From positions 3,534,001 through 3,598,000 of the forward strand of contig OZ210885.1 in NCBI GenBank assembly GCA_964658305.1: 64,000 nucleotides of DNA, written 5' to 3'. The position numbers were made by a program, and so were the translations under genes. Shown in pieces: positions 3,975 to 64,000 of this stretch (positions are counted from its first letter, which is position 1; each line of letters begins with the position of its first letter). Below the pieces are notes generated by a model. The model did not search any database. It had not been told where the DNA came from and saw only the letters and a program-made list of their open reading frames with translations. The DNA is from Leptogorgia sarmentosa. Its lineage: Eukaryota.

Positions 3975-4382
3975 ATTGTCGAGGTCTTTTCCTCAGGCAT
4001 ACCCAGACTGGAAAGTGTATTACGCCATCGGAAGATCTCGTGTACGATGATCCAGACGTCTCTCGTCCTTACTTTGTTGTATTGACTGACAACTGCTTGA
4101 ACGATACAGCACAATTCCGTTATCTTGACAGGCCGCTGTTATTCAATATTGAGAAGCAAGGAACGCTGTGGTCTCCCGGCGGCTATATGTCTCGTTGGTG
4201 GGTTTACAATGGCGTACATCCCAGTAGAGTTAGGAGTGAAATCAGCAGTTCCAATTATTTAAAACAAACAGCTGCAGGGTCTTTATTCTTGTACAATCGG
4301 GGTGTATGTGCTCAGTCCAGTTCATCAAATTATCTATTACGTGCAACGTGTGGTAACACAGCAGAGCAAAAGTTTACCTTTG
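3975..4382 (+). CDS. Copy 1 exon A: ricin-B/beta-trefoil-like N-terminal domain (hypervariable between paralogues)
   Basis: ttcag|AT...TTTG|gtaag, phase 1-1. FLRHTQTGKCI, AQFRY and EQKFTF resemble the GKCL and QxW/F repeats of ricin-B lectins. Fold assignment is by motif only. Confidence 0.7.
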
Positions 4383-7300
4383 GTAAGTGAGAATTATACT
4401 GGACACCCCGCACAATTATATCGAAAGAATAAAACTGATTACTATATTCGTCTTCTCCCCGACAGATTTCTTTTGAAATAAACTTGAAAGAAATTCGTCG
4501 AATGAGGGCAAACATTGGGCTTGATAATTCTTCATATTGTGCGAAAACCGAATTTAATAATTGTTTTATTATTTATTTACAGTCGATTTCAGGTCAATTC
4601 ACTGTTTGTATTTAGCCAACCAGAAACCAGGAATTTTAAAATAAATAATAACGGATTTTGCATTGTGTGTAGCAAAGAAATATTTGCAAAATGGAATTTG
4701 AAATTGCGAAAGCTAATTAAGTCTACAGTTCAAAATGTTAATTATCAGGTGACTGTGTCAAATCGCTTTTCACATTTGGTTTATCTCTACTTAGGGCGAT
4801 GTGAGATTTCCCTATGACCAGACGAAAATCTTTTATTTGGATTTTTTTAAAATGCATTCCACGATTGGGAAAATTAGTCTAATATCAACTCTGTTTTATA
4901 GGTGCAGTGACAGCCTATAACGCTGAAATGGAAAATGTCCACTGCTCTTCAGAACAGCATATGATGGTAAAGAGTGCTGATTATGGAGATTTTAATGATA
5001 GTGGTACATTTAATCACAACCCAAAAAACATTGATACACAATGTAGCAAGCTTACCAATTGCCAAGTGAAATCTCGTTGTAGCGGAGGGAAATCGTGTGA
5101 ACTGGTAATCGACAGTAATTTGCTACCATCGCAATATTGTTCTGATACTTCAAAACAAATATACACCAAGTACACTTGTGTGGATACCAACAGCTCCTCC
5201 GCTATAACTGCAGGTAAAATTTATTGAAATGCTATTGTATATTATTTTTTCTCTTTTAAAATCCCTTTTTTGCACTCTTGATGTTGATGAATCAAAGTTA
5301 ATGATCTAAATTCTTTGTTTGAGATCATTTACATTAGGGTCGACATATGAAAAGTTCCACGTCTGAACTACGATCTTGGCCAATAATGCATGGAACGGCA
5401 GGCCGAACCGACTATTTCCAGTTTTAAATATGACTAAATATGATGTTTTACCTCAAGGGATTCTAATAATTATACGCACGACAAATGAATCATTGTTCGA
5501 TAATTTAAGGCCGAGACTGTAGGCCTGAGGATCGTTATCGCAGGCTCATGAGACCAGCAATTGAAAACCGAATAAATGAGACACAGCGACAACTATCTTT
5601 ACTTTGGATGTGCAGTGTCCTCAGAGCATGGAATGACTTCAAAACTACATGTTTGCATTATGAAGTATATAAGGCTCGAAAGAATTTTATATGATTTATT
5701 ATGGCAATCACATTAACAAAAAATAGTATCAATAATATGTGCAAGGTGACCCAGCCAAAGCAATTAAAGTTCTCCATCAAGAACGAGCACTTTTCCTACG
5801 ACGTTTTTTGAATGCGAAGTATTTCATAACCATAATAAGCGATGAAACGCAAATCCCAGCAGCAATTTCTTTAAGAAAATATATTTTTCTTTGCTTTTGG
5901 TTAAAATGTGTTCAGAAAGTTAAAATAAGTACTGCCCAACTGTTTCACGACTTGGAAAACAGCTCTATCGAACGATAACAAAGCATATGAATTATTTAGG
6001 AGTGTTCATGATTTGATAATATTATTAATGTTTCAGCTTCCAATATTAGATTGTCAAACCGAAACGAGGGGTATATTGAAATAAAAAATGGTTCAATATG
6101 GAAGAAAGTTGTTGAGGAAAACTGGGATAAAAACCGTCAAAAAATGCTGTGTCAGTATTTAGGATTTGAAGAGATTGATGGCAATAATATTGAAACTACA
6201 CAGTTAGGGAGTGGACAAAAGATTGCAACTGGGGGCCTGATATGTTATAACACACAATCAAACATAGCATCCTGTTGTGTCCATCTTAATCCTTTAACAA
6301 CCAATACAAGTACTACGATTCCAGATGTGAGATGTAAGTACGCGGCTCTGCGTGTAGCAACTGAGAGGATGTTTGCTAAACGTTTCGGAAAAGTCTGGAT
6401 TTGCCCCCCCCCCTGCCGAATAGCTCCCCCGTCGCCACTGAGCTGTGTAACAAAAAATCTGAAAAACTATTATCCACCCATCAGTTCTATATACAGAGCA
6501 GCCATGTTACTCTAAATTAATGTTGGTGCTGCATTAATACATTTCCGCTATACTGGAATGGATTTCTAAGCATGTGAACGAGGCCGAAAAATGCATCAAA
6601 CATTTAACTCACTGCGATGATTGTGTTTTTGTTCAAAGTAAACACCTACCTTAATGAATGACGTAATTTCAACCTACGAATGTGGCTGAATCAATGTTCT
6701 GAAAATGTACATAATTCAGTCTGAGATATTCAGTTTCCTACAACAATAAGTAATATTGTATTCCTGCACCGATGAATTTAATTTAGTTTTTCAATTTTCG
6801 TCGCAGGCAAAATATGTAAGAACCCACTACTGCAAGAAGAAAATACTTTTCCAGACTCTGTGCTTTCCGGCAGTGGTGATCCAAGTGGGAACTACAAAGA
6901 TGCAAGAATCACTAAAAGTGGCTGGTGTCCATTGGGGTCCGGCAGCACATACCTCTTGCTCGACCTTCAGAAAGAATATCACATAACTCAAGTCGTGGTT
7001 ATGGCTGATGAAGAACAAACAAAATGGAGCGGCTCATATTCTTTGAAATACAGTCACGACACTTCTTATAAAAACAGCGCAAAGGTACAGTTATTATAGT
7101 AATGAAGTTATGGTTTCCTGAAAATGAATGGTAGAAAAAAGTTGGTAGAGAAGACTTCATGAAACAAGACCTTGCTGACGTATCGAGATTGACAAACTCC
7201 TACCCTTGTAATATAAAATAGAAACGTGATTTACCTAATTCCGGCGATCTTCAGTGCATGGTATACAATAGCGTATAATTAATTAACTATAAAGCGTCGA

Positions 7301-10300
7301 AAAAGTGAGGAGATTTTAAATCTAAGAGTCTAAGACAGCACATAATTTTATTTAACTTAACAAGGAATTGAACGAATTTAATTATCGATGATGTACATAT
7401 TACTTAACGTAACTGTTTGAGATCACGAGTTCTTCCTAATTTTCAGGAATTTGGAAACCAAAACGGCTACCAAGCATCAAGAACAAGCCTTAATATTTAT
7501 AATGTTAGACGCATGAAAATAGAGTCCACTGGAAACAGAAACTTTTGTCTACGTATACAACTTTGTGGAGAGGGTAAGAAATTGAGGAACAGTGAATAAC
7601 ATACATGAATGCCGAGATTGTCAGCTCGCAAAGAAACAGGTTATTTAGTCGAATACAAAGTTTTCATTGTATTTTAATATCAAACAAATTTTGGGAGTAA
7701 TTAGCATGGTAAATCGTGTTAGTCAATAGTCAATATTCAAGATATGAAGATAATTCAAGATGTTTCGCGACTTAAATTAGAGCGGTTTCTGGCCCCCTCA
7801 AATTTCTTTCAGGACCATTCTCACAAAAGGTCTAAAACTGTGTAGATGTGATAAACGGCGGGGGGGAGGGGGGGGTGTGGGTGTAAGGGGCGTTAGAAGA
7901 TCCAATAATGATGCTGTTGAAGCATAGAATATTATGCTTTAATCTGAAATCTCACCAGGAAAATGCAGTCTAAATTTCAACATTTTCTGGTGGAGCAAGC
8001 ACTTGCCCGGGATCCCCTGCAGTACCACGAATCTCGCTCCAAAAAAAATGACCTTGGCTTGATCGTCTATACTTTGTTTTTAGTTCAAACGCCAGCTCAA
8101 GTATCCAATATCTCAGTTTCACCATCAAAATTCTCTGCAACAGTAATGTGGAAAATATCTACATCCACTCAGCACTCCAGCTATATAACAGGGATCATCA
8201 TATACATCAACGGCCAAGTACACAAGACTGTATCTCGGGGGACTCAAGTATCTATAGAGGGACTTTTACCGTACACTTCGTATTCCGTGGGAATTCAAAC
8301 TCAGGATGGTTCATCACAAAAGAGTCAAATAGTTACCAAACCTTTCATGACAAGAGGAATTGGTATGTTTGGGGAATCATGCTTCCATGGAGATATCTTA
8401 TTCGACCTTAATTTCGTGTGACTTTTCTTTCGCGATTCGAAAAAATCGCAAATTAAAGTCCCGCGAAAAACTCTTCCCCACAAATTTACACACGCGAAAT
8501 TAAATACCCTCGTATATAAACAATTTAAAATTATTAAATTATTAATGTTCTCATAAATACAATGAATCACATGTTGAAGAAGGTTGGGATAGCGAACGTT
8601 CATATCAGTACATAAGAACTTCCCCTAGAAGACCAATTGTCGAATGAGTTTCATGTGAAGTAGAAAAAACATTATGGGCTACTTGTCGTGGTTCTGTCTT
8701 CCTTGAAAAGTTGTTTAAATATTTTAAGTTGAAGTTTAAATCATAGTGTAAATGATTCTCAGGAAAAACTCTATCCCTTTTTCTATTTTCGGTCATTAAA
8801 ATCGCGAAATATGGTTTCCAAAAAATCGCGAAATTAATTAGGTGCAAAATTAAGTACGAATAAGGTATGTAATCGTTGGGTTAAAATTCTTAGAAAATTT
8901 ATTCACATAGCCCCATTACGATTTTTCTTTCATGGATTAGTTAAGTTGTGGTAGGGTGCTGCTTGTGCAATCATCTTCTATAATCTGCTAAAATCGGGGA
9001 CAAATTTATTTCCGCTTCGAATTCTGGAAAATTCATTCATCAAAGTGAACATCACCTTGTCATGATAACACTGTATTTTGAAGCTACACACAGCATTGTT
9101 CGAATCTATACTATTATAAACAACAACTTTTCCTCTTTCATAATATGTGATTGATCTTCCATTTTTTCTTGTCGTAGCACCTCCCATAGTCGTTTCAAGG
9201 ATCGTATCAACGGCCTCTAAAACGTACACTATCTTCTGGGTTCAACCAACACTACCGGCTGGACAAACCGTCCTGAAGTACTTTATAAACTACAGAGTTC
9301 TCAATGGGCACAATAATTCAAGAAATGTATCAAAGGATATGACATCTATTACTATTGATGTTGAATATGAGAAACAATATATTTTTGAAATACAAGTTGT
9401 GACCGAGCCGGGAATGAGTAATGTGACGTCAAGAACCTGGTTCTCTCATTCAGGTAAAAATACATGAATTTTTTTTGTACAATGTGACAGTAACAACGGT
9501 TTAGTCTATGGAACTGCCAAATTTATCTGCGCCGAATTTTTTCTTGGAGGGAGGGATGGGTACTTGAAGAAACTTCTCAACCAGCCTTAGTACACCTCAA
9601 ATTTCTGGCATATAGTTAAAATGTCGGCGATTTAAACAATTTAGTTGTCTTTCTATTATTTATTCAATTTTATTTGTTTTTTATCCCTTCTATGTAGCGC
9701 CCTTGAAAACGCCGACCAAAAAGAACGACAGTTACACAGTAACACTGATAAAGCCAAGAAAAGAGCAAAATATTAAGTAAGTTGACATGAAATAGTTAAT
9801 AATTTGAAACAACTCACTCATAATGAAATCATTTTGTTGTAAAATATGTCTTTGTTCTCTTTTCTTTGAACTCTCGGAAACTGTGCTATTTAGTTACTTA
9901 CCTTGAGCTGGTTGACGTTGTCCGCGGTTAAAGTGCGAAAGTTTAGTCAGACGAAACTGTAGGTAAAAGTTGTAACTAAACTGCAACTACTGCGAATTGC
10001 AAGAAGAAACAACTGAAGGTTCCGGATAGCGAAATACCTACACGCAGATACTTTCTTTTCTTAGGCAAGTCGCTCTTGTGTTACTCAAATCAAAAAATCT
10101 CCTGGCACCAGAAGAAGTTGAGCTGCGGTTGTGCCGAGAAGAGAACGATATCGCCTTTAAAGCTAAAGTATTTGATATAACGGACTTTCAAGAAGATACA
10201 ATAGAAATATCACTTCAACAGACTCCAGACAAACGCCGAAGAAAGAGAAATGCAGTTGTAGTTGAGGCATTGTCACCTATGTCAACCTACAGAGCTGCCC

Positions 10301-12764
10301 AATTAAACACTGACGAGTCTGAGGTAGGTTAAAATAACTTCTTCTCGCAGGAAAGATTCATGCGAAAAACGAAATTGCCAACGTCAAATGATCACTCCCA
10401 AAATCTCAACATCTATTTTGGGTAAATTCATGGAGCTCTTCCGAACCCTTGCATATCATTGCAATTCCTATTGGTGGCGACTAGCGGGCTTACAAGATCT
10501 TGTTTATAACCCATGATTTCAGAACCGTAACGAATAAATGTACTGTCGCAATGAGGAATAGCGTCATAGTGATAGTTGTTTAACTGAAATTTGCATTTTT
10601 TTTAGAATGAACGTTGGTCATATTGGAGTGAACCTTTTACTTTCATTGGAGGTAGGCTGCATGGCGCATGTATTTATAAAATAACCGGAAGTAAGTGAAA
10701 AAGACTGCGCGCGCGTGATTGGCTAACAGTCGTGTTGATGTGAGATTATGTATATTGTGAAATGTGGGATTATTTCCACACATTTCTCGTTCTCCCAATC
10801 TTGCACTCGTGTTTACATAACTCGATGCAAACATGGAAAATGTTTTCAATTCCTTAAATACAGCTAAGGCTATATACTTGCGAACTTCAAACCTTGAACA
10901 TTATTTGGGAATCTTATTGCACATGCAAATTGTTCAAGTGTTGTATAATTTAGTCATTCAGATTTCAGATAATTTAAAAAATAGATGGCGGTTACGCCGC
11001 AAGGTAAAAAGTATTTTAAAACCAATTTCTATTCCAAATTAATTTTCTTTAATTTTTTTTATAAAATATTCTTATATAGTCAGTAATCAAGGCAAAGAAG
11101 ATGAAAGTAAATCACTTTCTTGATGGTTTATTTATTCTGTTCATGAAATCAAAATACCGTTGACAAAATGTTGGGATGAACATGCAACATTCTGAATTCT
11201 TGTATTATAGAAACTGTTGACGGTCAAGATACGAAGCAATCCAGTTGTGGGAAAATCCAAATAGATCTCCTCATTCCTCTGGTTATATTTATTCTTTGTT
11301 TTCTGCTGTCACTTGGTGTAATCATATATCAACGTCGTCTCATTCAAAATTATAAAAAGCTATCTGGCCGGGACTACGAGGTGCCAGAAAAGGCAAAAGC
11401 ACAGCAAACGATTAAATCTAGTATGTATACTTATTCTTTCAGTTAAGTTATTCTATTAACCAGGGGCGTAGCCAGCCCTACAAAAGTGAGGGGGTCCATT
11501 CATCCAGTAGATCATATACAGTTATACTGCGCAACAATATGTCCAAACGTTCATGTATTTTAGGCGGGGATGTTATGAACTTGAAAATAACAAATGTTTC
11601 ACAAGTGCACCTTAAACAAAACAGCCTAATGTGTGTGTATATGAATCAAATAATATATTAATCAAATGTTGGGGATGCAATGGTGCATGATTAGACTGTG
11701 AGGAGGCGTACTCGATATTCCTTATATCCGCTTTCTTACTTGATTTTAAAGGAATTGAAAGACATGTTTTGAATAAAAGTGGGGGGGTCCGGACCCCTCC
11801 CCCTCCGATTCCATCCCGTTAAATTAAATTTGTCAGCAGTAGACTGTCGTACATGAAAACGCAAATCTTAAAATATAACTTGCTTCTTGATCTACAACCT
11901 ATAACTTGTTTAAACTCGTTGCAAGACATTTTTATTTTGTTATTCAGGCTTTGCCATGGTTATAGAAGTAATGTTAATCAGAGAGAATGCATAAAAATGC
12001 CACGGGTTCTAAACTCGGCCTCAAACGAAAAGGCCTTTTGGGGTCTGCCCGTTCCAGAATCCTTCGGTTTATGAACACTTGTTTGGCCAAAAAGCACAGA
12101 AAAGAGTCATGTTTCAGCTATATAATACACTTCTCACATCATAATTCTCATTGACCGCGGAAGATCGATAATTGGGGGGGGGGGGCTCATATTCATATAT
12201 TCGAGTTCACAAATCTTGATTTCAAAACAACCCATAACAATTGACTTCAAAAGGAATAAGGAATGCAAAAGACGAATATATAAATATTAGCCCCCCCCCC
12301 CCCCCCGTCATTTGTTGAACTTCCGCTGTCGCTGAATTTAACCCATGACAGCCTGTTGTATATTGCATATCCGTTAGGGTTATCTCGAGCGGTTGTTTCG
12401 TGTGGGTGTACTGACAATGATAACTGATTATCATGGATCAAAATGGAAGAGATGCATCAACACCTTTCTTAATTCCATTCCAGCTCTTGAAGGTAACAAC
12501 AAAACTGTGAAAGCCGTCAAAGCTGCTACCGGCAGTGATTTGAACAAGAATGATGGATATGAATCACCTGACTGCTTTGCTAAAGGGAACAAGCAAAATG
12601 AAACTGAATCTCAACAAGAACTTTCTGCTGCAGAAGAATCCTCGACTTACATGTCTTTGAAAAACTGCAGAGATCCTGAGAACGTTTATCAATCGCTACA
12701 ATACCCCAATATTCAGACCGTGGAATATGAAAATCCCACATTTACGTCCAAAGGGCAAATGTAG
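3975..12764 (+). CDS. Receptor paralogue 1: multi-exon type I membrane protein (ricin-B-like, SUEL, SRCR, F5/8-C, FN3 x2, juxtamembrane FN3-like, TM, tyrosine-motif tail)
   Basis: Exons 3975-4382, 4902-5213, 6037-6333, 6807-7084, 7447-7573, 8084-8362, 9178-9453, 9698-9776, 10065-10323, 10606-10651, 11211-11420, 12484-12764. All have AG/GT boundaries with matching phases. They total 2852 nt, open to TAG at 12762-12764 (~950 aa). The 5' leader exon with ATG is not identified. Confidence 0.85.
4902..5213 (+). CDS. Copy 1 exon B: SUEL/galactose-rhamnose-binding lectin-like domain (degenerate)
   Basis: VHC...MMVKSADYG...C...VKSRCSGGKSC...C SDTSKQIYTKYTC follows the SUEL Cys/YG pattern. Phase 1-1 exon. 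Confidence 0.8.
6037..6333 (+). CDS. Copy 1 exon C: SRCR-like domain
   Basis: IRLSNRNEGYIEIKNGSIWKKVVEENWDKNRQKMLCQYLGF matches the SRCR N-terminal consensus (RL..EGrvEv...W..V...W......C..LG). Phase 1-1. Confidence 0.8.
6343..6502. mobile_element. Old MITE-like element in intron C-D, shared by all five copies
   Basis: Imperfect terminal IR GCTCTGCGTGTAGCAACTGA / TCAGTTCTATATACAGAGC around a poly-C tract. Confidence 0.5.
6807..7573 (+). CDS. Copy 1 exons D+E (6807-7084, 7447-7573): F5/8 type C (discoidin) domain
   Basis: C.NPLL...FPDS..SGS...DARI...GWCP....YLLLDL......QV......WS.SYSLKYS | EFGN....CLRIQLCG is the discoidin pattern. Phase-0 intron inside the domain. Confidence 0.85.
8084..8362 (+). 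CDS. Copy 1 exon F: fibronectin type III domain 1
   Basis: PAQVSNISVSP...ATVMW...IEGLLPYTSYSVGIQT is a classic FN3 (W, L.P.T.Y). Phase 1-1. Confidence 0.9.
9178..9453 (+). CDS. Copy 1 exon G: fibronectin type III domain 2
   Basis: APP...YTIFWVQP...KYFINYR...YIFEIQVVTEPGMS FN3 pattern. Phase 1-1. Confidence 0.85.
9698..10651 (+). CDS. Copy 1 exons H-J (9698-9776, 10065-10323, 10606-10651): juxtamembrane FN3-like domain with KRRRKR furin site and WSYWS motif
   Basis: Phases 1-2-0-1 join in frame: APLKTPTKKNDSYTVTLIKPRKEQNIKQVALVLL...PDKRRRKRNAVVVEALSPMSTYRAAQLNTDESE|NERWSYWSEPFTFIG. The small exons H and J are conserved with their splice sites in copies 1, 2 and 4 (H also in copy 5). Confidence 0.8.
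11211..11420 (+). CDS. Copy 1 exon K: transmembrane helix plus start of cytoplasmic tail
   Basis: LLIPLVIFILCFLLSLGVIIY (11267-11329) is followed by QRR (positive-inside) and DYEVP. Boundaries tatag|AA...TCTA|gtatgt. Confidence 0.85.
11461..11817. mobile_element. hAT-like MITE fragment, copy 1 only
   Basis: Starts CAGGGGCGTAGCCAG with a G-run/C-run subterminal region. Copies 2-4 read CTATTAAC|GTTAAA without it. The right TIR is not recognisable. Confidence 0.65.
12484..12764 (+). CDS. Copy 1 exon L: terminal cytoplasmic exon with ITAM-like tyrosine motifs
   Basis: GYESP...STYMSLKNCRDPENVYQSL...EYENPTFTSKGQM*. The stop position is conserved in copies 1-4. Confidence 0.8.
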
Positions 12765-14766: not shown

Positions 14767-16290
14767 TTCCTTATATGTTCGATCTCATTCAATAATTGTT
14801 GATAATTAGTGCATATATTTTTCATTTCGTTGATCATTGAGAAATATTGTGATGCGGAAGTATATGCTCTTACTCCTTCAGTATTCAAAATCAACGAAAA
14901 GATGTCGTGGCTTTTTCATCGATGGCTTTCTTATTTTACCATATCCTTGCTGGTGTTTGAAGGTAATGTGTGATACGGTTGTAGTCAGTACAGCAACAGT
15001 AACTAGCTACTGACAATATTTTTTACCCCAATTGCCCACCAATATCGATCATAGAATGTTTAAGGCTTTAAGCTACGCTTTCAAGTGTCAAACGTCAAAC
15101 AGCAAAGACAAACTGACAAAGTTTCAACCGTAAGCAGTAGAATGTCAATGGACTTGTTGTTAAATTATTCCTTTTACATGAGAAAGAAAGTGGTTAAACC
15201 AAATTCCGCGGCAAGAGTTAGACCTTCCGTTCGCCGTTCACCGAAGCATAAACTCCCTGATAACATGAGTCTAAAAATCAAAATGTATGTTATATTTGGT
15301 TTAAAAATGTTTTGCTTGCGATAAATTATGCAGTATGCGTGGTGGCATTAATGATCAAGACTATATAGACTGAGTTTATACTGCATATACATTGCCTAAA
15401 CATTATTGACAACTTAGGTTCTAGAAGTTGGTTCAGGAACAACAACTTAATTGGTTCAGGAAGTTGTGATATTATAGTTAAGTGCCTGTTAACTGTTGTA
15501 TATCTCTGGGTAGAAGGTTTATAAATTACACTGAAACCCTGTCGTTATTATTAGTACCTTGATAAAAACGAAACGAACACGTGTTATATATATATCGTTT
15601 GGTATATATGAGAATGCTCACACCAGACGCATTTGATACGCACCGAGACATCAACACATCCACACATGCGCAGAGAGGCATTGGGGCAGAGTGGCCTAAC
15701 GACCACAAGGGACGCGAGCTTTGCTCTCGCCCCAAAGCATAAATAGACATTGCTACAATGTGCCTATTTATAGCAATGTTGAAAAACAATATGATGTATT
15801 CACGAGTAACAATCGTGTTTAAGCGTGCATTGACTTGCACATTGACAGCGTGCATATAGCTATATTATAGGTATTGACTTATTAAGAATTTAAGATATCT
15901 TTGTAAAGCCCACTGACGCCATCGATTTTCTGCCTTTGGGATTTCAAAGGAGGAGCTTCGTAAATTCTGAAGAAGAATATTTCGCCAATAATGCATGCAT
16001 GCACTCGTGGGTTCAACTTCGTGCTATGGGCATCGAAATTCTAACAATGGATTATTTTAAATATTTGCGATTTTTTTGTACACCCTGTATGTGAAAATTG
16101 AAGACATTTTGTGCAGCTAAAATATATTCATGTCGAAAAGGTTGAGGAGGAAGCAATATCAATGTGTCGCGGGATCAGAACTTTACATGTATAGCCTGAG
16201 TATATTCGGAAATTATTTTACTGAAAGTTCTTTGTTATCAGTGTCATTGATAATTGCGTCATCATTCAATTTTTATCCTTCTTTGTTCAG

Positions 16291-29066: not shown

Positions 29067-29872
29067 GATAATTAGTGCATATATTTTTCATTTCGTTGAT
29101 TATTGAGAAATAATGTGATGCGGAAGTATATGCTCTTACTCTTTCAGTATTCAAAATCAACGAAAAAATGTCGTGGCTTTTTCATCGATGGCTTTCTTAT
29201 TTTAGCATATCCTTGCTGGTGTTTGAAGGTAATGTGTAATAGGTTGTAGTCAGTACAGCAACAGTACTGACAATATTTTTTACCCCAATTGCCCACCAAT
29301 ATCGATACTTGAGAAAGTTTAAGGCTTCAAGATTCGCTTTCAAGTGTCAAACGTCAAGCAGCAAAGACAAACTGACAAAGTTTCAACCGTAAGCAGTAGA
29401 ATGTTAATGGACTATTGTTAAATTATTCCTTTGACATGAGAAAGAAAATGGTTAAACCAATATTCCGCGGCAAGAGTTAGACCTTCCGTTCGCTGTTCAT
29501 CGAAGCATAAACTCCCTGGTAATATGAGTCTAAAAATAAAAATGTATGTTATAATTGGTTTACAAATGTTTTGCTTACGATGAATTATACAGTATTCGTA
29601 GTGGCATTAATGATCAAGACTATATAGGCTGAGTTTATTTTTATATATACATTCCATAAACATCATTGACGTCTTAGGTTCTGGGAGTTGCTTCAGGAAC
29701 AACAACTTGGTTCAGGAAGTTGTGATATTATAGTTGCCTGTTAACTGTTGTATATCTCTGGGTAGAAGGTTTGTAAATTACACTCAAACCCTATAGTTAT
29801 TATTAGTACTCTGATTATATAGCATATTCATCTCTTCTGTATATATTCTGTTACGAATTGTGATATTTTATT

Positions 29873-29930
29873 ATTTACCTGAGGAGTGTGGCAAGTTCAA
29901 CTAGCCATACGAAACAGTTTTGTAGTAAAT
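29873..29930 (+). ncRNA. Type I hammerhead ribozyme motif
   Basis: AUUUAC-CUGAGGA-GUGUGGC(loop)GCCAUAC-GAA-ACA(GUUU)UGU-A-GUAAAU. Stem I 6 bp, stem II 7 bp, stem III 3 bp, complete core, GUA cleavage triplet. Confidence 0.8.
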
Positions 29931-29957
29931 TTTCGATGAAGTAACTTGTGTTTCTCA

Positions 29958-29960
<3 letters not shown>

Positions 29961-30010
<50 letters not shown>
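29961..30010. repeat. (TA)n microsatellite
   Basis: About 25 TA units. Confidence 0.95.
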
Positions 30011-30011
<1 letters not shown>

Positions 30012-30196
30012 GATAAATTTTTGGTTAACGAAATGCCAAAAGAGTGCTCGATACCATATAGATAGAGCAAATAGTATAGTTTTGCCTCAAAAAGGTGCCA
30101 CTACAGCCTGTTTCATCCAAAAGAGCCACTCGGAAAGCACTTAATAACATAATTATCTTCGCAAATACAATACTTAATACATAAGGTAATGTCGGA

Positions 30197-30238
30197 GCCA
30201 TCTGATGATTCCTTTTGGATGAAACAGGCTGTAGTGGC
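30197..30238 (+). ncRNA. Minimal type I hammerhead ribozyme motif (Penelope-LTR type)
   Basis: GCCAU-CUGAUGA-UUCC(UUUU)GGAU-GAA-ACAGGCUGU-A-GUGGC. Stem I 5 bp, short stem II with a U-U closing pair, near-palindromic stem III, GUA triplet. Confidence 0.7.
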
Positions 30239-45700: not shown

Positions 45701-46335
45701 AGTCATGGGCAGAGTGCACATGCGCAGAGAGACATGGGCGCAGAGAGTCACGAGCTTTGCTCTCGCGTCCGTTGCCGCGAGTTTTGCTCTCGCTCCAAAT
45801 TATAGATATGGCTATAATATGCCTATTTATAGCAATGTTGAAAAACAATATGATGCATTCACAAGTATAATAACAATCGTGTTTAAGCGTGCATTGACAT
45901 GCACATTGACAGAGTGCATTATAGCTATATTAGGTATTGAATTCAAGCCAAGATATCTTTGAAAAGGGCACTGACGCCATCGATTTTCTGCCCTTGGGAG
46001 TTCATAAGAGCTTCGTAAATTCTGAAGAAGAATATTTCATCAATAATTCATGCACTCGTGGGTTCAACTTCGTGCTATGGGCATTGAAATTCTAACAATG
46101 GATTATTTTAATAAATGTCTGTGATTTTTTTGTATACCATGTATGTGAGAAATTGAAGGCATTCTGTGCAGCTAAATATATTCAAGTCTTGGGGAGGAAG
46201 CAATATCAATGTGTCGCGGGATCAGAACTTGTTTAGACTGATATATATATATATCCGCGTGGAAATTTTTTTTACTGATACTTTGTGTTGTTATCAGTGT
46301 CATTGCAGTTTCAATTTTCATCTTTCTCTATTCAG

Positions 46336-52300: not shown

Positions 52301-54998
52301 TTCTCAACCAGCCTTAGTACACCTCAAATTTCTGGCATATAGTTAAAATGTCGGCGATTTAAACAATTTAGTTGTCTTTCTATTATTTATTCAATTTTAT
52401 TTGTTTTTTATCCCTTCTATGTAGCGCCCTTGAAAACGCCGACCAAAAAGAACGACAGTTACACAGTAACACTGATAAAGCCAAGAAAAGAGCAAAATAT
52501 TAAGTAAGTTGTCATGAAATAGTTAATAATTTGAAACAACTCACTCATAATGAAATCATTTTGTTGTAAAATATGTCTTTGTTCTCTTTTCTTTGAACTC
52601 TCGTAAACTGTGCTACTTAGTTACTTACCTTGAGCTGGTTGACGTTGTCCGCGGTTAAAGTGCGAAAGTTTAGTCAGACGAAACTGTAGGTAAAAGTTGT
52701 AACTAAACTGCAACTACTGCGAATTGCAAGAAGAAACAACTGAAGGTTCCGGATAGCGAAATACCTACACGCAGATACATTCTTTTCTTAGACAAGTCGC
52801 TCTTGTGTTACTCAAATCAAAAAATCTCCTGGCACCAGAAGAAGTTGAGCTGCGGTTGTGCCGAGAAGAGAACGATATCGCCTTTAAAGCTAAAGTATTT
52901 GATATAACGGACTTTCAAGAAGATACAATAGAAATATCACTTCAACAGACTCCAGACAAACGCCGAAGAAAGAGAAATGCAGTTGTAGTTGAGGCATTGT
53001 CACCTATGTCAACCTACAGAGCTGCCCAATTAAACACTGACGAGTCTGAGGTAGGTTAAAATAACTTCTTCTCGCAGGAAAGATTCATGCGAAAAACGAA
53101 ATTGCCAACGTCAAATGATCACTCCCAAAATCTCAACATCTATTTGGGGTAAATTCAGGGAGCTCTTCCGAACCTTTGCATATCATTGCAATTCCTATTG
53201 GTGGCGACTAGCGGGCTTACAAGATCTTGTTTATAACCCATGATTTCAGAACCGTAACGAATAAATGTACTGTCGCAATGAGGAATAGCGTCATAGTGAT
53301 AGTTGTTTAACTGAAATTTGCATTTTTTTTAGAATGAACGTTGGTCATATTGGAGTGAACCTTTTACTTTCATTGGAGGTAGGCTGCATGGCGCATGCAT
53401 TTATAAAATAACCGGAAGTAAGTGAAAAAGACTGCGCGCGCGTGATTGGCTAACAGTCGTGTTGATGCGAGATTATGTATATTGTGAAATGTGAGATTAT
53501 TTCCACACATTTCTCGTTCTCCCAATCTTGCACTCGTGTTTACATAACTCGATGCAAACATGGAAAATGTTTTCAATTCCTTAAATACAGCTAAGGCTAT
53601 ATACTTGCGAACTTCAAACCTTGAACATTATTTGGGAATCTTATTGCACATGCAAATTGTTCAAGTGTTGTATAATTTAGTCATTCGGATTTCAGATAAT
53701 TTAAAAAATAGATGGCGGTTACGCCGCAAGGTAAAAAGTATTTTAAAACCAATTTCTATTCCAAATTAATTTTCTTTAATTTTTTTTATAAAATATTCTT
53801 ATATAGTCAGTAATCAAGGCAAAGAAGATGAAAGTAAATCACTTTCTTGATGGTTTATTTATTCTGTTCATGAAATCAAAATACCGTTGACAAAATGTTG
53901 GGATGAACATGCAATATTCTGAATTCTTGTATTATAGAAACTGTTGACGGTCAAGATGACAAGCAATCCTGTAGTGAGAAAATCCAAATAGATCTCCTGA
54001 TTCCTCTCGTTATTTTTATTCTTTATTTTCTGCTGTCACTTGGTGTAATCATATATCAACGTCGTCTCATTCAAAATTATAAAAAGCTATCTGGCCGCGA
54101 CTACGAGGTACCAGAAAAGGCAAAAGCAGACCAAACGATTAAATCTAGTATGTATACTTATTCTTTCAGTTAAGTTATTCTATTAACGTTAAATTAAACT
54201 GATTTGCCAGCAGTATACTGTAGTACATGAAAACGTAGATCTTAAAATATAACTTGCTTCTTGATCTACAACCTATATCTTGTTTAAACTCGTTGCAAGA
54301 CATTTTTATTTTGTTATTCAGGCTTTGCCAAGGTTATAGAAGTAATGTTAATCAGAGAGAATGCATAAACATGCCACGGGTTCTAAACTCGGCTTTAAAC
54401 GAAAAGGCCTTTTGGGGTCTGCCCGTTCCAGAATCCTTCGGTTTATGAACACTTGTTTGGCCAAAAAGCACAGAAAAGAGTCATGTTTCAGCTATATAAT
54501 ACACTTCTCAAATCATAATTCTCATTGACCGCGGAAGATCGATATTCATATATTCGGGTCCACAGACCTTGATTTCAAAACAACCCACAACAATTATTGA
54601 TTTCAAAAGGAATAAGGAATTCAAAACACGAATATATAAATATTAGCCCCCCCCCTCCCAATTATCAGTGATCAAAATGCAACAGATGCATCAACACCTT
54701 TCTTAATTCCATTCCAGATCTTGAAGGTAACAACATAACTGTGAAAGCCGTCAAAGCTGCTACCGGCAGTGATTTGAACAAGAATGATGGATATGAATCA
54801 CCTGACTGCTTTGCTAAAGGGAACAAGCAAAATGAAACTGAATCTCAACAAGAACTTTCTGCTGCAGAAGAATCCTCGACCTACATGTCTTTGAAAAACC
54901 GCAGAGATCCTGAGAACGTTTATCAATCGCTACAATACCCCAATATTCAGACAGTGGAATATGAAAATCCCACATTTACATCCAAAGGGCAAATGTAG
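46336..54998 (+). pseudogene. Receptor paralogue 4 with a 1-bp deletion in FN3-1 (pseudogene, secreted truncation, exon-skipped form or assembly error)
   Basis: Exons 46336-46743, 47670-47978, 48792-49088, 49562-49839, 50142-50268, 50777-51054 (278 nt versus 279), 51905-52180, 52425-52503, 52792-53050, 53333-53378, 53938-54147, 54718-54998. GTTTCACCA becomes GTTTACCA at ~50812, giving TAA at 50836-50838. Confidence 0.65.
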
Positions 54999-56728
54999 AT
55001 TCAACAAAAGCCTTTCGTCGAAGATCGTTTTGTAGTGACTGGAACTTTTGCTGCATGTAGAGTGGCCAGAGTGCATTTTCCTCGGATATACGTAAGAGGG
55101 TTTATAACCACACATCTTTATTTATATTTTAACAAGGGCCTCAGCTAGAGTTAATTTAGAGGGGCGGGCGATGCATATATTCCTGTTCTGCCCAACGGAT
55201 TTTTATCAAATTTGTTGTTTTTAAATAAAAGAAATCCGTCGGGGAGCACATAACTATATATACGAATATGCATCCCCCCCCCGCCCTTAGCTTTCTAGCT
55301 ACCGCCCCGATTGTGACCATTTTAACGATTTGCAAAAATGCACGAATAAGCCTATAGCATTTAATACTATTTTACTCCATATTATAATTAACTTAACGTA
55401 TTTAGCACTTTTTAGCTACTACATAATCATGATAACACATTAGTGTAAAACCGAAAAAGTTGCAAATAGTGTAGGTATTTTGGTACTGTACATGCATATC
55501 TATGTTGGATATTTGTATTGGTGTATTTTGAAAAACAATTATATCGTATTTCTTCATATTAACCAAAGAAATGTGTTTGATAATGTTGACAAAAACACTC
55601 ATTACCAGATTCTCGAGTATTCTCACAACATTGCCCGAGTGCAATTATAACAGCATAATGGCACGCGACGAGTTTTTCTATTTCTTTTATAATATAAGAG
55701 AATATAAGCGCAACAAATAACTTCGTTAGGAAGATCAAAATTACAATTCTCTTTACATGTAATCAAGCGTGTTCTCAAATGTTGCCAAGCAGCAATACAG
55801 CTTTATTCCTTTAGCTGAGCGAAAGCAAACAATTCAAGCGTTTTTTATGGATGTATTTTTAGTATATATGTATTTTTATTGTCTTTTTGTCAAACCAAAG
55901 AGTCGCGCTTAATAGCTAGATGCGTGCATTACGCTGTTATAATGCACGCTCATTAGCCAATCACTTTGCAGATTTTACCCTACTTATATTATAATGAGAA
56001 ATAATGTGATGCGGAAGTATATGCTCTTACTCTTTCAGTATTCAAAATCAACGAAAAAATGTCGTGGCTTTTTCATCCATGGCTATCTTATTTTAGCATA
56101 TCCTTGCTGGTGTTTGAAGGTAATGTGTGATACGGTTGTAGTCAATACAGCAATAGTACTGAAAACATTTTTTCACCACAATTCGGCCCACCAATATCGA
56201 TCATTCAAAGTTTAAGGCTTCAAGCTTCGCTTTCAAGTGTCAAACGTCAAGCAGCAAAGACAAACTGACAAAGTTTCAACCGTAAGCAGTAGAATGGAAA
56301 TGGACGTGTTGTTAAATTATTCATTTGACATGAGAGAGAAAGTGGTTAAACCAATATTCTGCGGCAAGAGTTAGATCTTCCGTTCGCCGTTCACCGAAGC
56401 ATAAATTCTCTGATAATATGAGTCTTAAAATAAAAATGTATGTTTTATTTGGTTTACAAAAAATCAATGTTTTCCTTACGATAAATTATAGCCTACAGTA
56501 TGCGTGGTGGCATTAATGATCAAGACTATATAGGCTGAGTTTATACTGTATATATACATTGCCTAAACATTATTGACAACTTAGGCTCCGGAAGTTGGTT
56601 CAGGAACAACTCAATTGGTTCAGGAAGTTGTGATATTATAGTTAAGTGCCTGTTAACTGTTGTATATCTCTGGGTAGAAGGTTTATAAATTACACTGAAA
56701 CCCTGTCGTTATTATTAGTACCTTGATA

Positions 56729-56732
<4 letters not shown>

Positions 56733-56807
<75 letters not shown>
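56733..56807. repeat. (AT)n microsatellite
   Basis: About 37 AT units at the site homologous to the copy-3 insertion cluster. Confidence 0.95.
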
Positions 56808-56810
<3 letters not shown>

Positions 56811-57677
56811 GTTTATTAACGTATAAAAACGAAACGAACACGAGTGATATATATCGTTTGGTATACATGAGAATGCTCACACCAGACGCATGTGGTACAC
56901 ACCAAGACATCAACACATCCACACATGCGCAGAGAGTCATGGGGCCAGTGTGCTCAAACGACCACATTGCTATAATGTGCCTATTTATAGCAATGTTGAA
57001 AAACAATATGATGCAGATATTCACGAATAACAATCGTGTTTAAGCCTGCATTGACATGCCTATTGACAGCGTGCATATCTATTACCACAGTTAACTGTGA
57101 TATTTGGAATTGACTAACTAAGAAATTAAGATATCTTTGTAAAGCGTACTGATGCCATCGATTTCCTGCCCTTGCGAGTTCAAAGGAGCTTCTTAAATTC
57201 TGAAGAAGAATATTTCGTCAAGAATTTATGCACTCGTGGGTTCAATGAACAACGGAGCAATATCATTTTGCTTAGTACATTTTGTAGTCTTTATAAACGG
57301 CTTACAAGCACGAAAACGTTTCATGTAAACTTTAATGGCAATTTACGCATCTTTGCTGTTGTTTTTTCAAATGAATATATATTTATTTCGTTTTGCCCTG
57401 CGAACTCCCTCTTTGCTCTGCAAAGTTAAGCATTGGGGGGGGGGGGGGTTAGTCACCCCCCCTAAGCCCCCCCTTAAATTTCGCCCCTGTGTGCAGTTAA
57501 AATATATTCAAGTCGAAAAGGTTGGGGAGGAAGCAATATCAATGTGTCGCGGCCCGCGGGATCAGAACTTGTTTAGCCTGAGTATATTTGCGCGGACATT
57601 ATTTTACTGATACTTTCTTTGTTATCAGTGTCATTGATAATTGCATCATCAATCAATTTTTCTCCTTCTCTGTTCAG

Positions 57678-60600
57678 ATTGTCGAGGCCTTTTCCTCAGG
57701 CACACCCAGACTGGAAAGTGTATTACGCCATCGGAAGAACTCGCGTACGATGCTCCAAGCACCGCTATTCCTTACTATGTTGTATTGACTGACAACTGCT
57801 TGAACGATACAGCACAATTCCGTTATCTTGACAGACCGCTGTTATTCAATATTGAGAAGCAGGGAACGGTGTGGTCTCCCGCCAACCCTGCCTATATGAG
57901 ACGTTGGTGGGTTTACAACGGCATACATCCCACTAGAGTTAGGAATGAAATCAGCAGTCGCAATTATTTAAAACAAACAGCTGCAGGGTCTTTATTCTTG
58001 TACAATATTGATGTATGTGCTCAGTCCAGTTCATCAAATCATATATTGAGGGCAACGTGTAATAACACAGCAGAGCAAGAGTTTACCTTTGGTAAGTAAG
58101 AATTATACCGGACACCGCGCACAATTATGCCGAAAGAATAAAACTGATTACTATATTCGTCTTCTCCCCGACAGATTTGTTTTGAAATAAACTTGAAAGA
58201 AATTCGTGAAATGAGGGCAAACATTGGGCTTGATAATTCTTCATATTGTGCGAAAACCGAATTAAATAATTGTTTTATCATTTATTTACAGTCGGTTTCA
58301 GGTCACTTTAACTGTTTGTATTTAGCCAACCAGAAACCAGGAACTTTAAAATAAATAATAATGGTCTTTTGCATTGTGTGTAAGAAATATTTGCAAAATG
58401 GAATTTGAAATTGCGAAAGCTAATTAAAGTCACCAGTACAAAATGTTAATTATTAGGTGACTGTGTCAAATCGCTTTTCACACTTGGCTTATCTCTACTT
58501 AGGGCGATGCGAGATTTCTCTATGACCAGACGAAAATCTTTTATTTGGATTTTTTTAAATGCAGTCCACGATTGGGAAAATTGGTCTAATATCAACTCTG
58601 TTTTATAGGTGCAGTGACAGCCTATAACGCTGAAATGGAAAATGTTCACTGCTCTTCAATACAGCATATGATGGTAAAGAGTGCTGATTATGGACATTTC
58701 AATGATAGTGGTACATTTAATCACAAGCCAAACATTGATACACAATGTAGCAAGCTTACCACTTGCCAAGTGAAATCTCGTTGTAGCGGAAGGAAATCGT
58801 GTGAACTGGTAATCGACAGTAATTTCCTACCATCACAATATTGTTCTGATACTTCAAAACAAATATACACCAGGTACACTTGTGTGGATACCTACAACTC
58901 CTCCGATATAACTGCAGGTAAAATTTATTGAAATGTTGTTGTATAATTATTATTTTTTCTCTTTTAAATTTCCTTTTTGCACTATTGATGTTGATGAATC
59001 AAAGTTAATGATCTAAATTCTTTGTTTGTGATCATTTACATTAGGGTCGACATATGAAAAGTTCGAACTACGATCTTGGACAATAATGGCCCAACCGACT
59101 ATTTTCAGTTTTAAATATGACTAAATATGATTTTTTACCTCAAGGGATTCTAATAATTACACGCACGACAAATGAATCATTGTTCGATAATTTAAGGCCG
59201 AGATTGTAGGCCTGAGGATCGTTATCGCAGGCTCATGAGACCAGCAATTGAAAATCCGAATAAATGAGATACAGCGACAAATATCTTTACTTTGGATGTG
59301 CAGTGTCCTCAGAGCATGCAATGACTTCAAAACTACATGTTTGCATTATGAAGTATATAAGGCTCGAAAGAATTTTATATAATTTATTATGGCAATCACA
59401 TTAACAAAAAATAGTATCAATAATATGTGCAAGGTGATCCAGCCAAAGCAATTAAAGTTCTCCAGCAAGAACGAGCACTTTGCGTACGACGTTTTTTGAA
59501 TGCGAAGTATTTCATAACCATAATAAGCGATGAAACGCAAATCCCAGCAGCAATTTTTTTAAGAAAATATATTTTTCTTTGCTTTTGGTTAAAATGTGTT
59601 CAGAAAGTTAAAATAAGTACTGCCCAAATGTTTCACGACTTGGAAAACAGCTCTATCGAACGATAACAAAGCATATGAATTATTTAGCAGTGTTCATGAT
59701 TTGATAATATTATTAATGTTTCAGCTTCCAATATTAGATTGTCAAACCGAAACGAGGGGTATATTGAAATAAAAAATGGTTCAATATGGAAGAAAGTTGT
59801 TGAGGAAAATTGGGATAAAAACCGTCAAAAAATGCTGTGTCAGTATTTAGGATTTGAAGAGATTGATGGCAATAATATTGAAACTACACAGTTAGGGAGT
59901 GGACAAAAGATTGCAACTGGGGACCTGATATGTTATAACACACAATCAAGCATAGCATCCTGTTGTGTCCATCTTAATCCTTTAACAACCAATACAAGTA
60001 CTACGATTCCAGATGTGAGATGTAAGTACGCGGCTCTGCGTGTAGCAACAGAGAGGATGTTTGCTAAACGTTTCGGAAAAGTCTGGATTTGCCCCCCCCC
60101 CCCCCTTCTGCCGAATAGCTCCCCCGTCGCCACTGGGCTGTGTAACAAAAAATCTGAAAAACTATTATCCACCCATCAGTTCTATATACAGAGCAGCCAT
60201 GTTACTCTAAATTAATGTTGGTGCTGCATTAATACATTTCCGCTATACTGGAATGGATTTCTAAGCATGTGAACGAGGCCGAAAAATGCATCAAACATTT
60301 AACTCACTGCGATGATTGTGTTTTTGTTCAAAGTAAACACCTACCTAAATGAATGACGTAATTTCAACCTACGAATGTGGCTGAATCAATGTTCTGAAAA
60401 TGTACATAATTCAGTCTGAGATATTCAGTTTCCTACAACAATAAGTAATATTGTATTCCTGCACCGATGAATTTAATTTAGTTTTTCAATTTTCGTCGCA
60501 GGCAAAATATGTAAGAACCCACTACTGCAAGATGAAAATACTTTTCCAGACTCTGTGCTTTCCGGCAGTGGTGATCCAAGTGGGAACTACAAAGATGCAA

Positions 60601-63600
60601 GAATCACTAAAAGTGGCTGGTGTCCATTGGGGTCCGGCAGCACATACCTCTTGCTCGACCTTGAGAAAGAATATCACATAACTCAAGTCGTGGTTATGGC
60701 TGATGAAGAACAAACAAAATGGAGCGGCTCATATTCTTTGAAATACAGTCACGACATTTCTTATAAAAACAGCGCAAAGGTACAGTTATTATAGTAATGA
60801 AGTATATGCTTTCCTGAAAATGAATGGTAGAAAAGAGTTGGTAGAGAATACTTGATGAAACAAGACCTTGCTAACGTATCTAGATTGACAAACTCCTACC
60901 CTTGTAATATAAAATAGAAACGTGATTTACCTAATTCCGGCGATCTTCAGTGCATGGTATACAATAGCGTATAATTAAATAACTATAAAGCGTCGAAAAA
61001 GAGAGGAGATTTTAAATCTAAGAGTCTAAGACAGCACATATTTAACTTAACAAGGAATTGAACGAATTTAATTATCGATGATGTACATATTTCTTAACGT
61101 AACTGTTTGAGATCACGAGTTCTTCCTAATTTTCAGGAATTTGGAAACCAAAACGGGTACCAAGCATCAAGAACAAGCCTTGATATTTATAATGTTAGAC
61201 ACATGAAAATAGAGTCCACTGGAAACAGAAACTTTTGTCTACGTATAGAACTTTGTGGAGAGGGTAAGAAATTGAGGAGCAGTGAATAACATACATCAAT
61301 GCCGACAATGTCAATTCGCCCAAAAACATGATAGTTAGTCGACTTCAAAGTTTTTGTCGTATTGTAATATCAAATAGTAATTATAATTAGTAGTTAGCAT
61401 GGTAAATCGTATTACTCAATATTCAAGATATGAAGGTATTCAAGATGTTTAGCGACTTAAATTAGAGCGGTTTCTGGCCCCCTCAAATTTCTTTCAGGAC
61501 CATTCTCACAAAACTGTGTAGATGTGATAAAGGGCGGGGGCGGGGAGTGGGAGTAGGTGTGGGTGTAAGCGGCGTTAGAAGATCCAATAATGATGCTGTT
61601 GAAGTATAGAATATTATGCTTTATTCCGATATCTCACCAAGAAAATGCAGTCTAAATTTCAACATTTTCTGGTGGAGCAAGCACTCCCCCCGAGACCCCC
61701 TTCAGTATCTCGCATCTCGACCCGCAAAAAAATGAACTTGCCTTGATCGTCCATACTTTGTTTTTAGTTCAAACGCCAGCTCAAGTATCCAATATCAAAG
61801 TTTCACCATCTAAAGTCTCTGCAACCGTAATGTGGGAAATATCTACATCTACTCAGCACTCCAGCTATATAACAGAGATCATCATATACCTCAACGGCCA
61901 AGTACACAAGACTGTATCTCGGGGGACTCAAGTAACTATAGAGGGACTTTTACCGTATACTTCGTATTCAGTGGGAATTCAAACTCAGGATGGTTCATCA
62001 CAAAAGAGTCAAGTAGTTACCAAACATTTCACGACAAGAGGAATTGGTATGTAAAGGTTTGGGGAAGCATGCTTCCATGGAGATATCTTATTCGTACTTA
62101 ATTTCGTGTGACCTTAATTTCGCACTTGGAAAAAAATCGCAAATTAAAGCCCCGCGAAAAACACTTCCCCACAAACTTACACACGCGAAATTAAATACCC
62201 TAGTATATAAACAATTTAAAATTATTAAATTATTAATGTTTTCATGAATACAATCAATCACATGTTGAAGAAGGTTGGGATAGCGAACGTACTTATCAGT
62301 ACAGAAGACCAATTGTCGAATGAGTTTCATGTGACTAGAAAAAACATTATGGTCTACTTGTCATGGTTCTGTCTTCCTTGAAAAGTTGTTTAAATATTTT
62401 AAGTTGAAGTTTAAATCATAGTGTAAATGATTCTCAGGAAAAACTCTATCCCTTTTTCTATTTTCGGTTATTAAAATCGCGAAAATAGAGTCTCGCGAAA
62501 TATGGTTTCGAAAAAATCGCGAAATTAATTAGGTGCAAAATTAAGTACGAATAAGGTATGTACTCGTTGGGTTAAAATTCTTGTTAAGGTGTGGTAGGGT
62601 GCTGTTTGTGCAATTATCTTCTATAATCTGCTAAAATCGGGGACAAATTTATTTCCGCTTCAAATTCTGGAAAATTCATTCATCAAAGTGAACATCACCA
62701 TGTCATGATAACACTGTATCTTGTGGCTACACACAGCATTGTTCGAATCTATACTGTTATAAACAACAACTTTTCCTCTTTCAAAATATGCGATTAATTT
62801 TCCATTTTTTCTTGTCGTAGCACCTCCCGCAGTCATTTCAAAGATCCTATCAACGGCCTCTAAAACGTACACTATCTTCTGGGTTCAACCAACACTGCCT
62901 GTTGGACAAATCGTCTTGAAGTACTATATAAACTACAGAGTTCTCAATGGGCCCAATAATTCAAAAAATGTATCAAAGGATATGACATCTATTGCTATTG
63001 ATGTTGAATATGAGAAACAATACATTTTTGAAATAAAAGTTGTGACCGAGCCGGGAATAAGTAATGTGACGTCAAGAACCTGGTTCTCTCATTCAGGTAA
63101 AAATACATGAAATGTTTTTTTACAATGTGACAGTAGGAACGGTTTAGTCTATGGAACTGCCAAATTTATCTGCGCCAAATTTTTGCTTGTAGGGAGGGAT
63201 GGGTACTGTGGTGCATAAAAATTATGCATCGGTCATTCAAAAGTAATTTAAAATTAAACCACGTTTTAAAAAATTTCTCAACCTGCCTTTTAGTACACCT
63301 CAAATTTCTGGCATATAGTTAAAGTGTCGGCGATTGAAACAATTTGGTTGTTTTTCCATAATTATTCAATTTTATTTGTGTTTTTTATCCCTTCTATGTA
63401 GCGCCCTTGAAAACGCCGACCAAAATGAACGACAGTTACACAGTAACACTGATAAAGCCAAGAAAAGAGGGAAATATTAAGTAAGTTGACATGAAATAGT
63501 TAATAATTTGAAACAACTCACTTTTGTGTCTATATTGAATTCATTTTGTTTCAATATGTCTTTGTTTTCTTGTCTTTGAACTCTTGTAAACTGTGCTACT

Positions 63601-64000
63601 TAGTTACTTACTTTGAGCTAGTTGACGTATTAGACCGCGGTTAAAGTGCGAAAGTTTAGTCAGACGAAACTATAGGTAAAAGTTGTAACTAAACTGCGAC
63701 TACTGCGAATTGCAAGAAGAAACAAGGTTCCAGATAGTGAAATACCTACACGCAGATACTTTCTTTTCTTAGGGAAGTCGCTCTTGTGTTACTCAAATCA
63801 AAAAATCTCCTGGCACCAGAAGAAGTTGAGCTGCGGTTGTCGCCTCCTTCAGATGAAGAGAACGATATCGCCTTTAAAGCTAAAGTATTTGATATAACGG
63901 ACTTTCAAGAAGATACAATAGAAATATCACTTCAACAGACTCCAGACATACGACGAAGAAAGAGAAATGCAGTTGTAGTTGAGGCATTGTCACCTATGTC
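57678..64000 (+). CDS. Receptor paralogue 5 (3' part runs off the window)
   Basis: Exons 57678-58091, 58609-58917, 59725-60021, 60502-60779, 61137-61263, 61768-62046, 62821-63096, 63402-63480, 63773->64000. In frame as far as visible, with IRRRKR retained. Confidence 0.85.

Follow-up and report, generated by a model that had tools for sequence, protein, structure and literature searches.

The locus raises the question of what kind of receptor is encoded by a tandem array in the octocoral Leptogorgia sarmentosa, and for what purpose its members have multiplied. The array lies in a window of 64,000 nucleotides, the whole stretch of DNA that was analysed, and was described in an earlier note as a candidate immune or allorecognition cluster. 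The analysis points to what is very probably one family, in which a common ectodomain is carried by two forms, one with a tyrosine tail and the other with a tyrosine phosphatase. The chances are about even that the array consists of the phosphatase-less, tyrosine-tail members of this receptor tyrosine phosphatase-related family, as the likely activating half of a set of paired non-self receptors.

Organization of the array

Alignment of the window with itself reveals five head-to-tail repeats on the forward strand (Table 1), with 81-96% identity over kilobase blocks, introns included, in agreement with the five paralogues described earlier. Splice-site modelling yields 13 coding exons instead of the 12 previously counted, and the first gene begins at 2232, outside the range given before, which started at 3975. 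Every modelled intron is GT-AG, and the phases join into a single frame of 970 amino acids in copies 1 and 2, the two of the five copies that are complete and undamaged inside the window. In copies 1-4 the stop codon is located 2 kb ahead of the next copy.

The truncated members and pseudogenes that the earlier note names as typical of immune clusters have their counterparts in copy 3, which is devoid of exons 8-11, and copy 4, with a deletion of one nucleotide. Apart from the missing base, exon 7 of copy 4 is identical to that of copy 1, so the lesion is either very recent or an assembly error, and copy 4 is either a pseudogene or a product of such an error.

Directly 3' of exon 2, copies 1 and 2 are identical, yet exon 2 itself differs by 4-5% between them; in later tracts copy 1 is nearest to copies 5 and 4, being identical to them or nearly so. 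The identical tracts are likely the result of gene conversion that spares the tip, the alternative being a chimeric assembly. Mis-assembled haplotypes were considered in the earlier note as a way in which its reading could fail; two haplotypes of one gene are ruled out, since there are five copies and each has insertions or deletions of its own.

A sixth, inverted copy is represented by its signal-peptide exon, which has an open frame with an ATG and a GT donor; the rest of this gene exits the window leftward and could encode the phosphatase form. The sixth copy and copy 1 are positioned head to head (465-2292) with their start points 1.7 kb apart. An inverted duplication of this kind around the first exons could promote inversion events or provide a common promoter.

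Table 1. Location of the gene copies, the exons of copy 1 and the inserted element in the window
Feature	Position	Strand	Description
Copy 1	2232-12764	+	Intact, 13 coding exons, 970 aa
Copy 2	14902-26384	+	Intact, 13 coding exons, 970 aa
Copy 3	29168-42791	+	751 aa; in-frame loss of exons 8-11 leaves a short stalk; intron 2 contains a LINE
Copy 4	45086-54998	+	13 exons present; exon 7 lacks 1 nt near 50812
Copy 5	56059-64000	+	Exons 1-10, open frame up to the window end
Sixth, inverted copy, signal-peptide exon	465-525	-	blastn 88% to exon 1, tblastn match
Exon 1, predicted signal peptide	2232-2292	+	72% to P0001 and P0009 at their N-termini
Exon 2, β-trefoil (ricin-B-like fold) variable tip	3975-4382	+	Predicted structure; copy variation
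Exon 3, SUEL lectin-like domain	4902-5213	+	PF02140 E 7.9e-9, above curated cut-off
Exon 4, divergent SRCR domain	6037-6333	+	PF00530 E 2.7e-10, above curated cut-off
Exons 5-6, F5/8 type C	6807-7084, 7447-7573	+	PF00754 E 9.1e-6 on exon 5, below cut-off
Exons 7-8, two FN3-type domains	8084-8362, 9178-9453	+	PF00041 E 9.9e-7 (above cut-off); PF25814 E 0.0023 (below)
Exons 9-11, membrane-proximal stalk	9698-9776, 10065-10323, 10606-10651	+	52-89% per exon to P0001
Exon 12, tail-type transmembrane helix	11211-11420	+	Hydropathy 3.1; 44-66% to tail forms
Exon 13, non-catalytic tail	12484-12764	+	YESP, YMSL-x9-YQSL, YENP
Insertion of about 5 kb in copy 3 intron 2	32406-37369	-	Holds non-LTR retrotransposon (LINE)
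LINE endonuclease ORF	36109-34379	-	PF14529 E 3.3e-11
LINE reverse transcriptase ORF	34186-32723	-	PF00078 E 8.7e-22

Domain architecture and the fold of the tip

The protein encoded by copy 1, taken as the reference, is a type I receptor and comprises a tip with a predicted β-trefoil fold followed by SUEL, SRCR, F5/8 and FN3 domains, a stalk, a membrane helix and a tail with tyrosine motifs. Pfam was run on single exons of this copy against the curated cut-offs; the F5/8 type C domain (PF00754) scores above its cut-off in full-length relatives, and no Pfam family was found for the tip exon, a stalk exon or the tail in the single-exon runs. The stalk contains a basic RRRKR sequence, also present in the Paramuricea clavata phosphatase receptor P0001, and displays weak kinship to a PTPRU-type domain (hhalign probability 49%, E 1.7e-4). 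The predicted trefoil tip and the SUEL, SRCR and F5/8 exons uphold the earlier description of a non-Ig receptor cluster, and the family has multiplied recently.

A profile search with the tip gave 76 cluster representatives, and 60 sequences went into the AlphaFold2 model of the tip, which reached a pLDDT of 95.4; with 12 sequences the value was 34.5. Foldseek aligns the model with β-trefoil lectin domains at a TM of about 0.7, and the best structural match is actinohivin (Z 16.4, rmsd 1.9, 113 aligned residues), with many ties that include designed trefoils. Structure prediction thereby supports a β-trefoil fold for the tip exon and the ricin-B-like tip previously proposed. A search of the tip sequence against solved structures produced no match, then two chance matches at E 1.5. 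The model resembles the mannose receptor cysteine-rich domain with a TM of about 0.67, at 8-18% identity to that domain and to R-type lectins, and the relative P0106 matches PF24562 below the cut-off (E 1.1e-5).

The canonical trefoil lectin motif is of the QxW type. In the tip, QxF is recognizable by eye, and because a motif of this type is found in the last trefoil repeat only, sugar binding by the modelled domain is uncertain.

Variation and selection among the copies

Exon 2 carries an excess of amino-acid change, and the tip is diversifying. Among the array copies pN/pS is 1.35 in exon 2, 0.31-0.55 in exons 3-7, 0.68-0.89 in exons 8, 10 and 12 and 0.27 in the tail exon 13, the last value indicating purifying selection. 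The tip has 68 nonsynonymous and 15 synonymous differences versus 72 and 50 in exons 3-7 (Fisher p 0.0007). The variable membrane-distal domain of the earlier note is thus borne out. To speak of four pattern-recognition modules overstates the case: only the tip varies strongly, the SRCR exon 4 is nearly invariant, with 5 of 98 columns variable among the copies, and sugar binding by any of the modules is putative.

Site models fitted to five sequences with purpose-written code gave an M2a-M1a likelihood-ratio statistic (LRT) of 58.2 for exon 2, with about 18% of the codons at high omega, and of 0 in exons 3, 4 and 5. The statistic for exon 2 was 31.7 without gap-near codons, with 1 of 44 null runs higher, and 0.9 once multi-difference codons were removed, a harsh filter after which omega was still 1.09. 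Neutral simulations with recombination and shifting trees reached a maximum of 38.2 in 44 runs, which is below the 58.2 of the full data.

Three variable patches, picked after inspection of the data, comprise about codons 19-33, 66-72 and 80-94 of the tip, and map to hairpin loops and a helical connector in the predicted model. The distance is 0.195 in the patches, 0.050 in the tip framework and 0.04-0.10 in the introns; as a whole, exon 2, at about 0.09, does not exceed the faster introns in divergence.

Further tip variants come from the three DNA sequencing runs listed, which are contigs of one other sample with many fixed differences from the window. These contigs extend over introns, and none of the joints listed for them is of splice type; the run search listed no RNA data. 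Between 152 and 197 contigs of this sample align to the 451-nt tip region, a figure that mixes alleles with more distant paralogues and is not a copy number. Taken one at a time, 35 of the 40 best-supported among 101 tip differences alter an amino acid, and 19 of the 40 occur in none of the five copies.

Relatives and the phosphatase form

Searches with the tip returned 7 proteins from 6196 candidates and 14 from 7492. The named relatives are all from octocorals (Paramuricea clavata, Dendronephthya gigantea and Xenia sp.); a species name was available for 2 of the 18 looked up among the 76 tip-cluster representatives, and by these sequences the family appears so far to be confined to octocorals among its named relatives. 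The direct homologues CAB3995581, CAB3997379, CAB4007475, XP_028402624-632 and XP_046857058 are octocoral gene models; those of the same subfamily as the window genes have 44-63% identity over the ectodomain. Octocoral homologues are annotated only as ‘uncharacterized’ or ‘PTP-like’. This is not a conserved single-copy gene, the case which the earlier note had set against its own reading, as both the array and the relatives are multi-copy. A literature search found no paper on the family, although a mention in genome-paper tables or supplements is possible.

Four of the 14 long relatives (P0001, P0002, P0110 and P0112) have the same ectodomain placed on tandem PTP domains, and in all four the D1 catalytic motifs KNRY, WPD and HCSAGxGR are intact. 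Copy 1 is 58% identical to P0001 over residues 1-593 and 50% over residues 588-821, with nothing matching beyond exon 11. Among six proteins compared, exons 8-10 are matched only by the two phosphatase forms and exon 11 only by P0001, while the stalk exons 9-11 have no match in the four tail forms; exons 12-13, conversely, match tail forms and no phosphatase form. The window gene therefore reads, by sequence comparison, as the ectodomain and stalk of a phosphatase receptor joined to the membrane helix and tail of a tail form. This link to receptor tyrosine phosphatases, with the whole ectodomain shared and a likely opposing arm, was missed by the earlier note.

No PTP sequence was detected within the window (best E 8.4), in keeping with the non-catalytic ITAM-like tail noted previously. 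Alternative splicing to phosphatase exons inside the array was rejected, as the window contains no such exons. Similar ectodomains with two different intracellular ends are thus seen within the set of relatives, and again when the window genes are compared with P0001.

Trees of the trefoil and SUEL domains contain two deep subfamilies (100/100), each with both forms, and the phosphatase forms cluster with tail forms from the same subfamily and the same species (SH-aLRT 96 and 100). A single clade of the four phosphatase forms is rejected with a p-AU of 1.6e-80, a value for a clade named after the first trees had been seen and driven mostly by the deep split. Copies 4 and 5 were absent from the first trees owing to a motif filter, and are included in the later ones.

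According to the database records, six Dendronephthya members report the same 2,088,173-nt contig, and the accessions XP_028402624-632 are near-consecutive. One of the six is a phosphatase, three have a helix and a tyrosine tail, and two are without a helix. Ectodomain identity to the phosphatase on the same contig is 60-78%, versus 27% between subfamilies. Several phosphatase-less relatives have no membrane helix, perhaps because their gene models are truncated.

The contigs that encode P0009 and P0087, proteins of 882-884 amino acids, measure 2854 and 3047 nt, which leaves no room for introns; they therefore likely represent spliced transcripts from a relative. Both proteins have the order of the window gene from the tip to the first FN3 domain, as well as its membrane helix and tail, which would lend indirect backing to the splice model. 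The full-length P0009 used as a query in a protein atlas gave no usable match, and a metagenome scan yielded one weak, uninformative locus out of 330 candidates.

Other members depart from this plan. A PF23144 juxtamembrane domain is present in P0008 and a weak PF18861 match in P0107 and P0108. The trefoil-SUEL module is duplicated in tandem in P0105, P0106 and P0107, and Ig domains adjoin the membrane in P0105 and P0107, features that indicate modular shuffling within the family. The P0112 cluster comprises 30 Xenia protein models, many of them phosphatase-form isoforms, on a 19.1-Mb scaffold, and the models apparently come from more than one locus; they offer a convenient way into public single-cell data. 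P0010, a Dendronephthya ‘PAT1 homolog’ model fused to the family's stalk and helix and to a portion of its tail, is likely a gene-model chimera.

The tyrosine-motif tail

In copies 1-3 the tail contains YMSL-x9-YQSL, which fits the ITAM consensus Yxx[IL]x6-9Yxx[LI] as applied to Alr (PMC9546547). The motif arises in 0.67% of 20,000 randomized versions of the tail. It is kept with its x9 spacer in all four full-length tails of the same type, altered in P0006 and missing from the truncated P0010. Across species the tyrosine columns are 61% conserved and the other residues 36%. Since the ITIM pattern, too, is matched by the first tyrosine motif of the tail, the sequence does not reveal whether the signal would be positive or negative; no ITIM pattern was found in P0001 and P0002 in their juxtamembrane region. 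Within the family there are at least three unlike helix-plus-tail modules. In the second subfamily three of four tails have a spacer of 11-12 residues, outside the 6-9 consensus, and the motif is absent from the tail of a Xenia member, which is 33 residues long.

Comparison with known systems

The vertebrate paired receptors KIR, LILR, PILR and CEACAM1/3, as described in PMC3533184, similarly combine like ectodomains with different intracellular ends, gene clusters and tyrosine motifs. Unlike them, the octocoral family has no Ig tip, its presumed inhibitory member bears a tandem phosphatase in place of an ITIM, and its presumed activating member carries the motif in its own tail and not on an adaptor (PMC3533184).

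The Alr complex of Hydractinia, where allorecognition has been genetically mapped, is likewise cnidarian, with clustered single-pass proteins, one domain per exon, an FN3-like stalk, an ITAM with an x6-9 spacer and pseudogenes (PMC9546547). Homology to Alr was nevertheless rejected, because Alr ectodomains are composed of Ig domains (V-set and I-set) and the window genes have a predicted β-trefoil tip followed by SUEL, SRCR and F5/8; a phosphatase-bearing member is not described for Alr in the portion of PMC9546547 at hand. Botryllus fester and its FcoR coreceptors likewise occur in polymorphic clusters that vary in copy number, and carry tyrosine motifs, but belong to the Ig superfamily, divide recognition and signalling between separate paired genes, use ITIM/hemITAM motifs and have no intrinsic phosphatase, as far as the excerpted PMC12582321 describes them. 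A survey of cnidarian pattern receptors that includes Xenia and Dendronephthya leaves the octocoral family unmentioned in its available sections (PMC8260672).

The family resembles the LAR, PTPRU and PTPRJ receptor phosphatases in its FN3 stalk, in a basic site of the cleavage type and, in the relatives, in a juxtamembrane domain and D1-D2. It differs from them in the trefoil-SUEL-SRCR-F5/8 tip, which replaces Ig or MAM domains, in the lack of a phosphatase in the window genes, and in being multi-copy and fast evolving. The mannose receptor family shares an N-terminal β-trefoil on a type I receptor, while its other domains differ. In sea urchins, lectin or SRCR ectodomains occur on receptor phosphatases, and in choanoflagellates receptor kinases and phosphatases share ectodomains; both would be partial precedents. 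No papers were found on the sea-urchin lectin/SRCR phosphatase names.

Proposed function and alternatives

On balance, the role of the family is somewhat more probably than otherwise in non-self recognition, and it is an evenly balanced matter whether the two forms oppose each other. The best reading of the ‘off’ member is that it acts by an intrinsic phosphatase and not by an ITIM. In the proposed mechanism, the variable tip would bind a foreign or allogeneic surface ligand, either glycan or protein, and clustering would then lead to phosphorylation of YMSL-x9-YQSL by a Src-family kinase. A tandem-SH2 kinase of the Syk/Shark type would dock on the phosphorylated tail, and the phosphates would be stripped by a paralogue that has a similar tip but carries a D1-D2 phosphatase itself, so that the outcome would be set by the balance of tail and phosphatase forms. 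Syk and Shark homologues are present in Hydractinia (PMC9546547). Unequal crossover and gene conversion would keep the ectodomains alike, swap tails and shuffle tips.

A more ambitious version is tentative and rather doubtful, namely that octocorals possess a paired system in which a hypervariable lectin-fold ectodomain is recombined between an active phosphatase (off) and an expanding ITAM-tail set (on), and that the cluster is a self/non-self or allorecognition locus. If true, this would be a kind of paired receptor not described before. The family is a non-Ig candidate recognition family in octocorals, with named genes in three sequenced genera and testable hypervariable patches; its brake would be an enzyme built into the twin receptor, and it suggests a possible route from receptor phosphatases to tyrosine-motif immune receptors by tail replacement.

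An arms race with decoys is an unlikely explanation. A microbe, parasite or symbiont would exploit the tip of the phosphatase receptor, and the phosphatase-less copies would multiply as decoys or competitors, with the tail serving uptake or trafficking and not a kinase switch. Many tail-type copies versus few phosphatase genes, variation confined to the tip and short, broken or membrane-less members speak for decoys; against them, four tail tyrosines and the 9-residue spacing are conserved across species, and purifying selection acts on the tail exon of the array copies (pN/pS 0.27).

Adhesion receptor phosphatases typically combine an FN3 stalk, a basic cleavage-type site and D1-D2 phosphatase domains, and gamete proteins are also marked by SUEL domains and fast evolution. 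The same stalk, site and phosphatase in the octocoral family could therefore indicate a code for cell identity, adhesion or gametes, in the style of LAR-type phosphatases or egg/sperm lectin receptors, with tip diversity providing homophilic or species specificity and not defence. This, too, is improbable in view of the many paralogues and variants in one individual, and the birth-and-death members and ITAM-consensus tail suit immune clusters better.

A neutral origin of the tandem amplification, in which surface loops are under relaxed constraint and assembly error accounts for part of the expansion, would fit the overall divergence of exon 2 and the patchwork identity of copy 1 to copies 2, 5 and 4, which both conversion and chimeric assembly can produce, but is very improbable given the private indels of the five copies, the pN/pS of 0.27-0.55 in exons 3-7 and 13, the many further tip variants in independent DNA runs and the clustering of the family in another genus.

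Mobile and repeat elements

The LINE in copy 3 has two long frames that overlap, one for the endonuclease and one for the reverse transcriptase, with a (TTTA)n run on the 3' side; no target-site duplication is evident around 32406-37369. A short repeat at about 10670-10860, in intron 11, has very high depth in the DNA runs and is probably a high-copy MITE-like element. Long AT dinucleotide runs are present in intron 1 of copy 3 (29958-30336) and copy 5 (56733-56807), and short inverted repeats are located close to AT runs, pairing 30123-30194 with 31117-31188 and 30501-30549 with 30680-30728.
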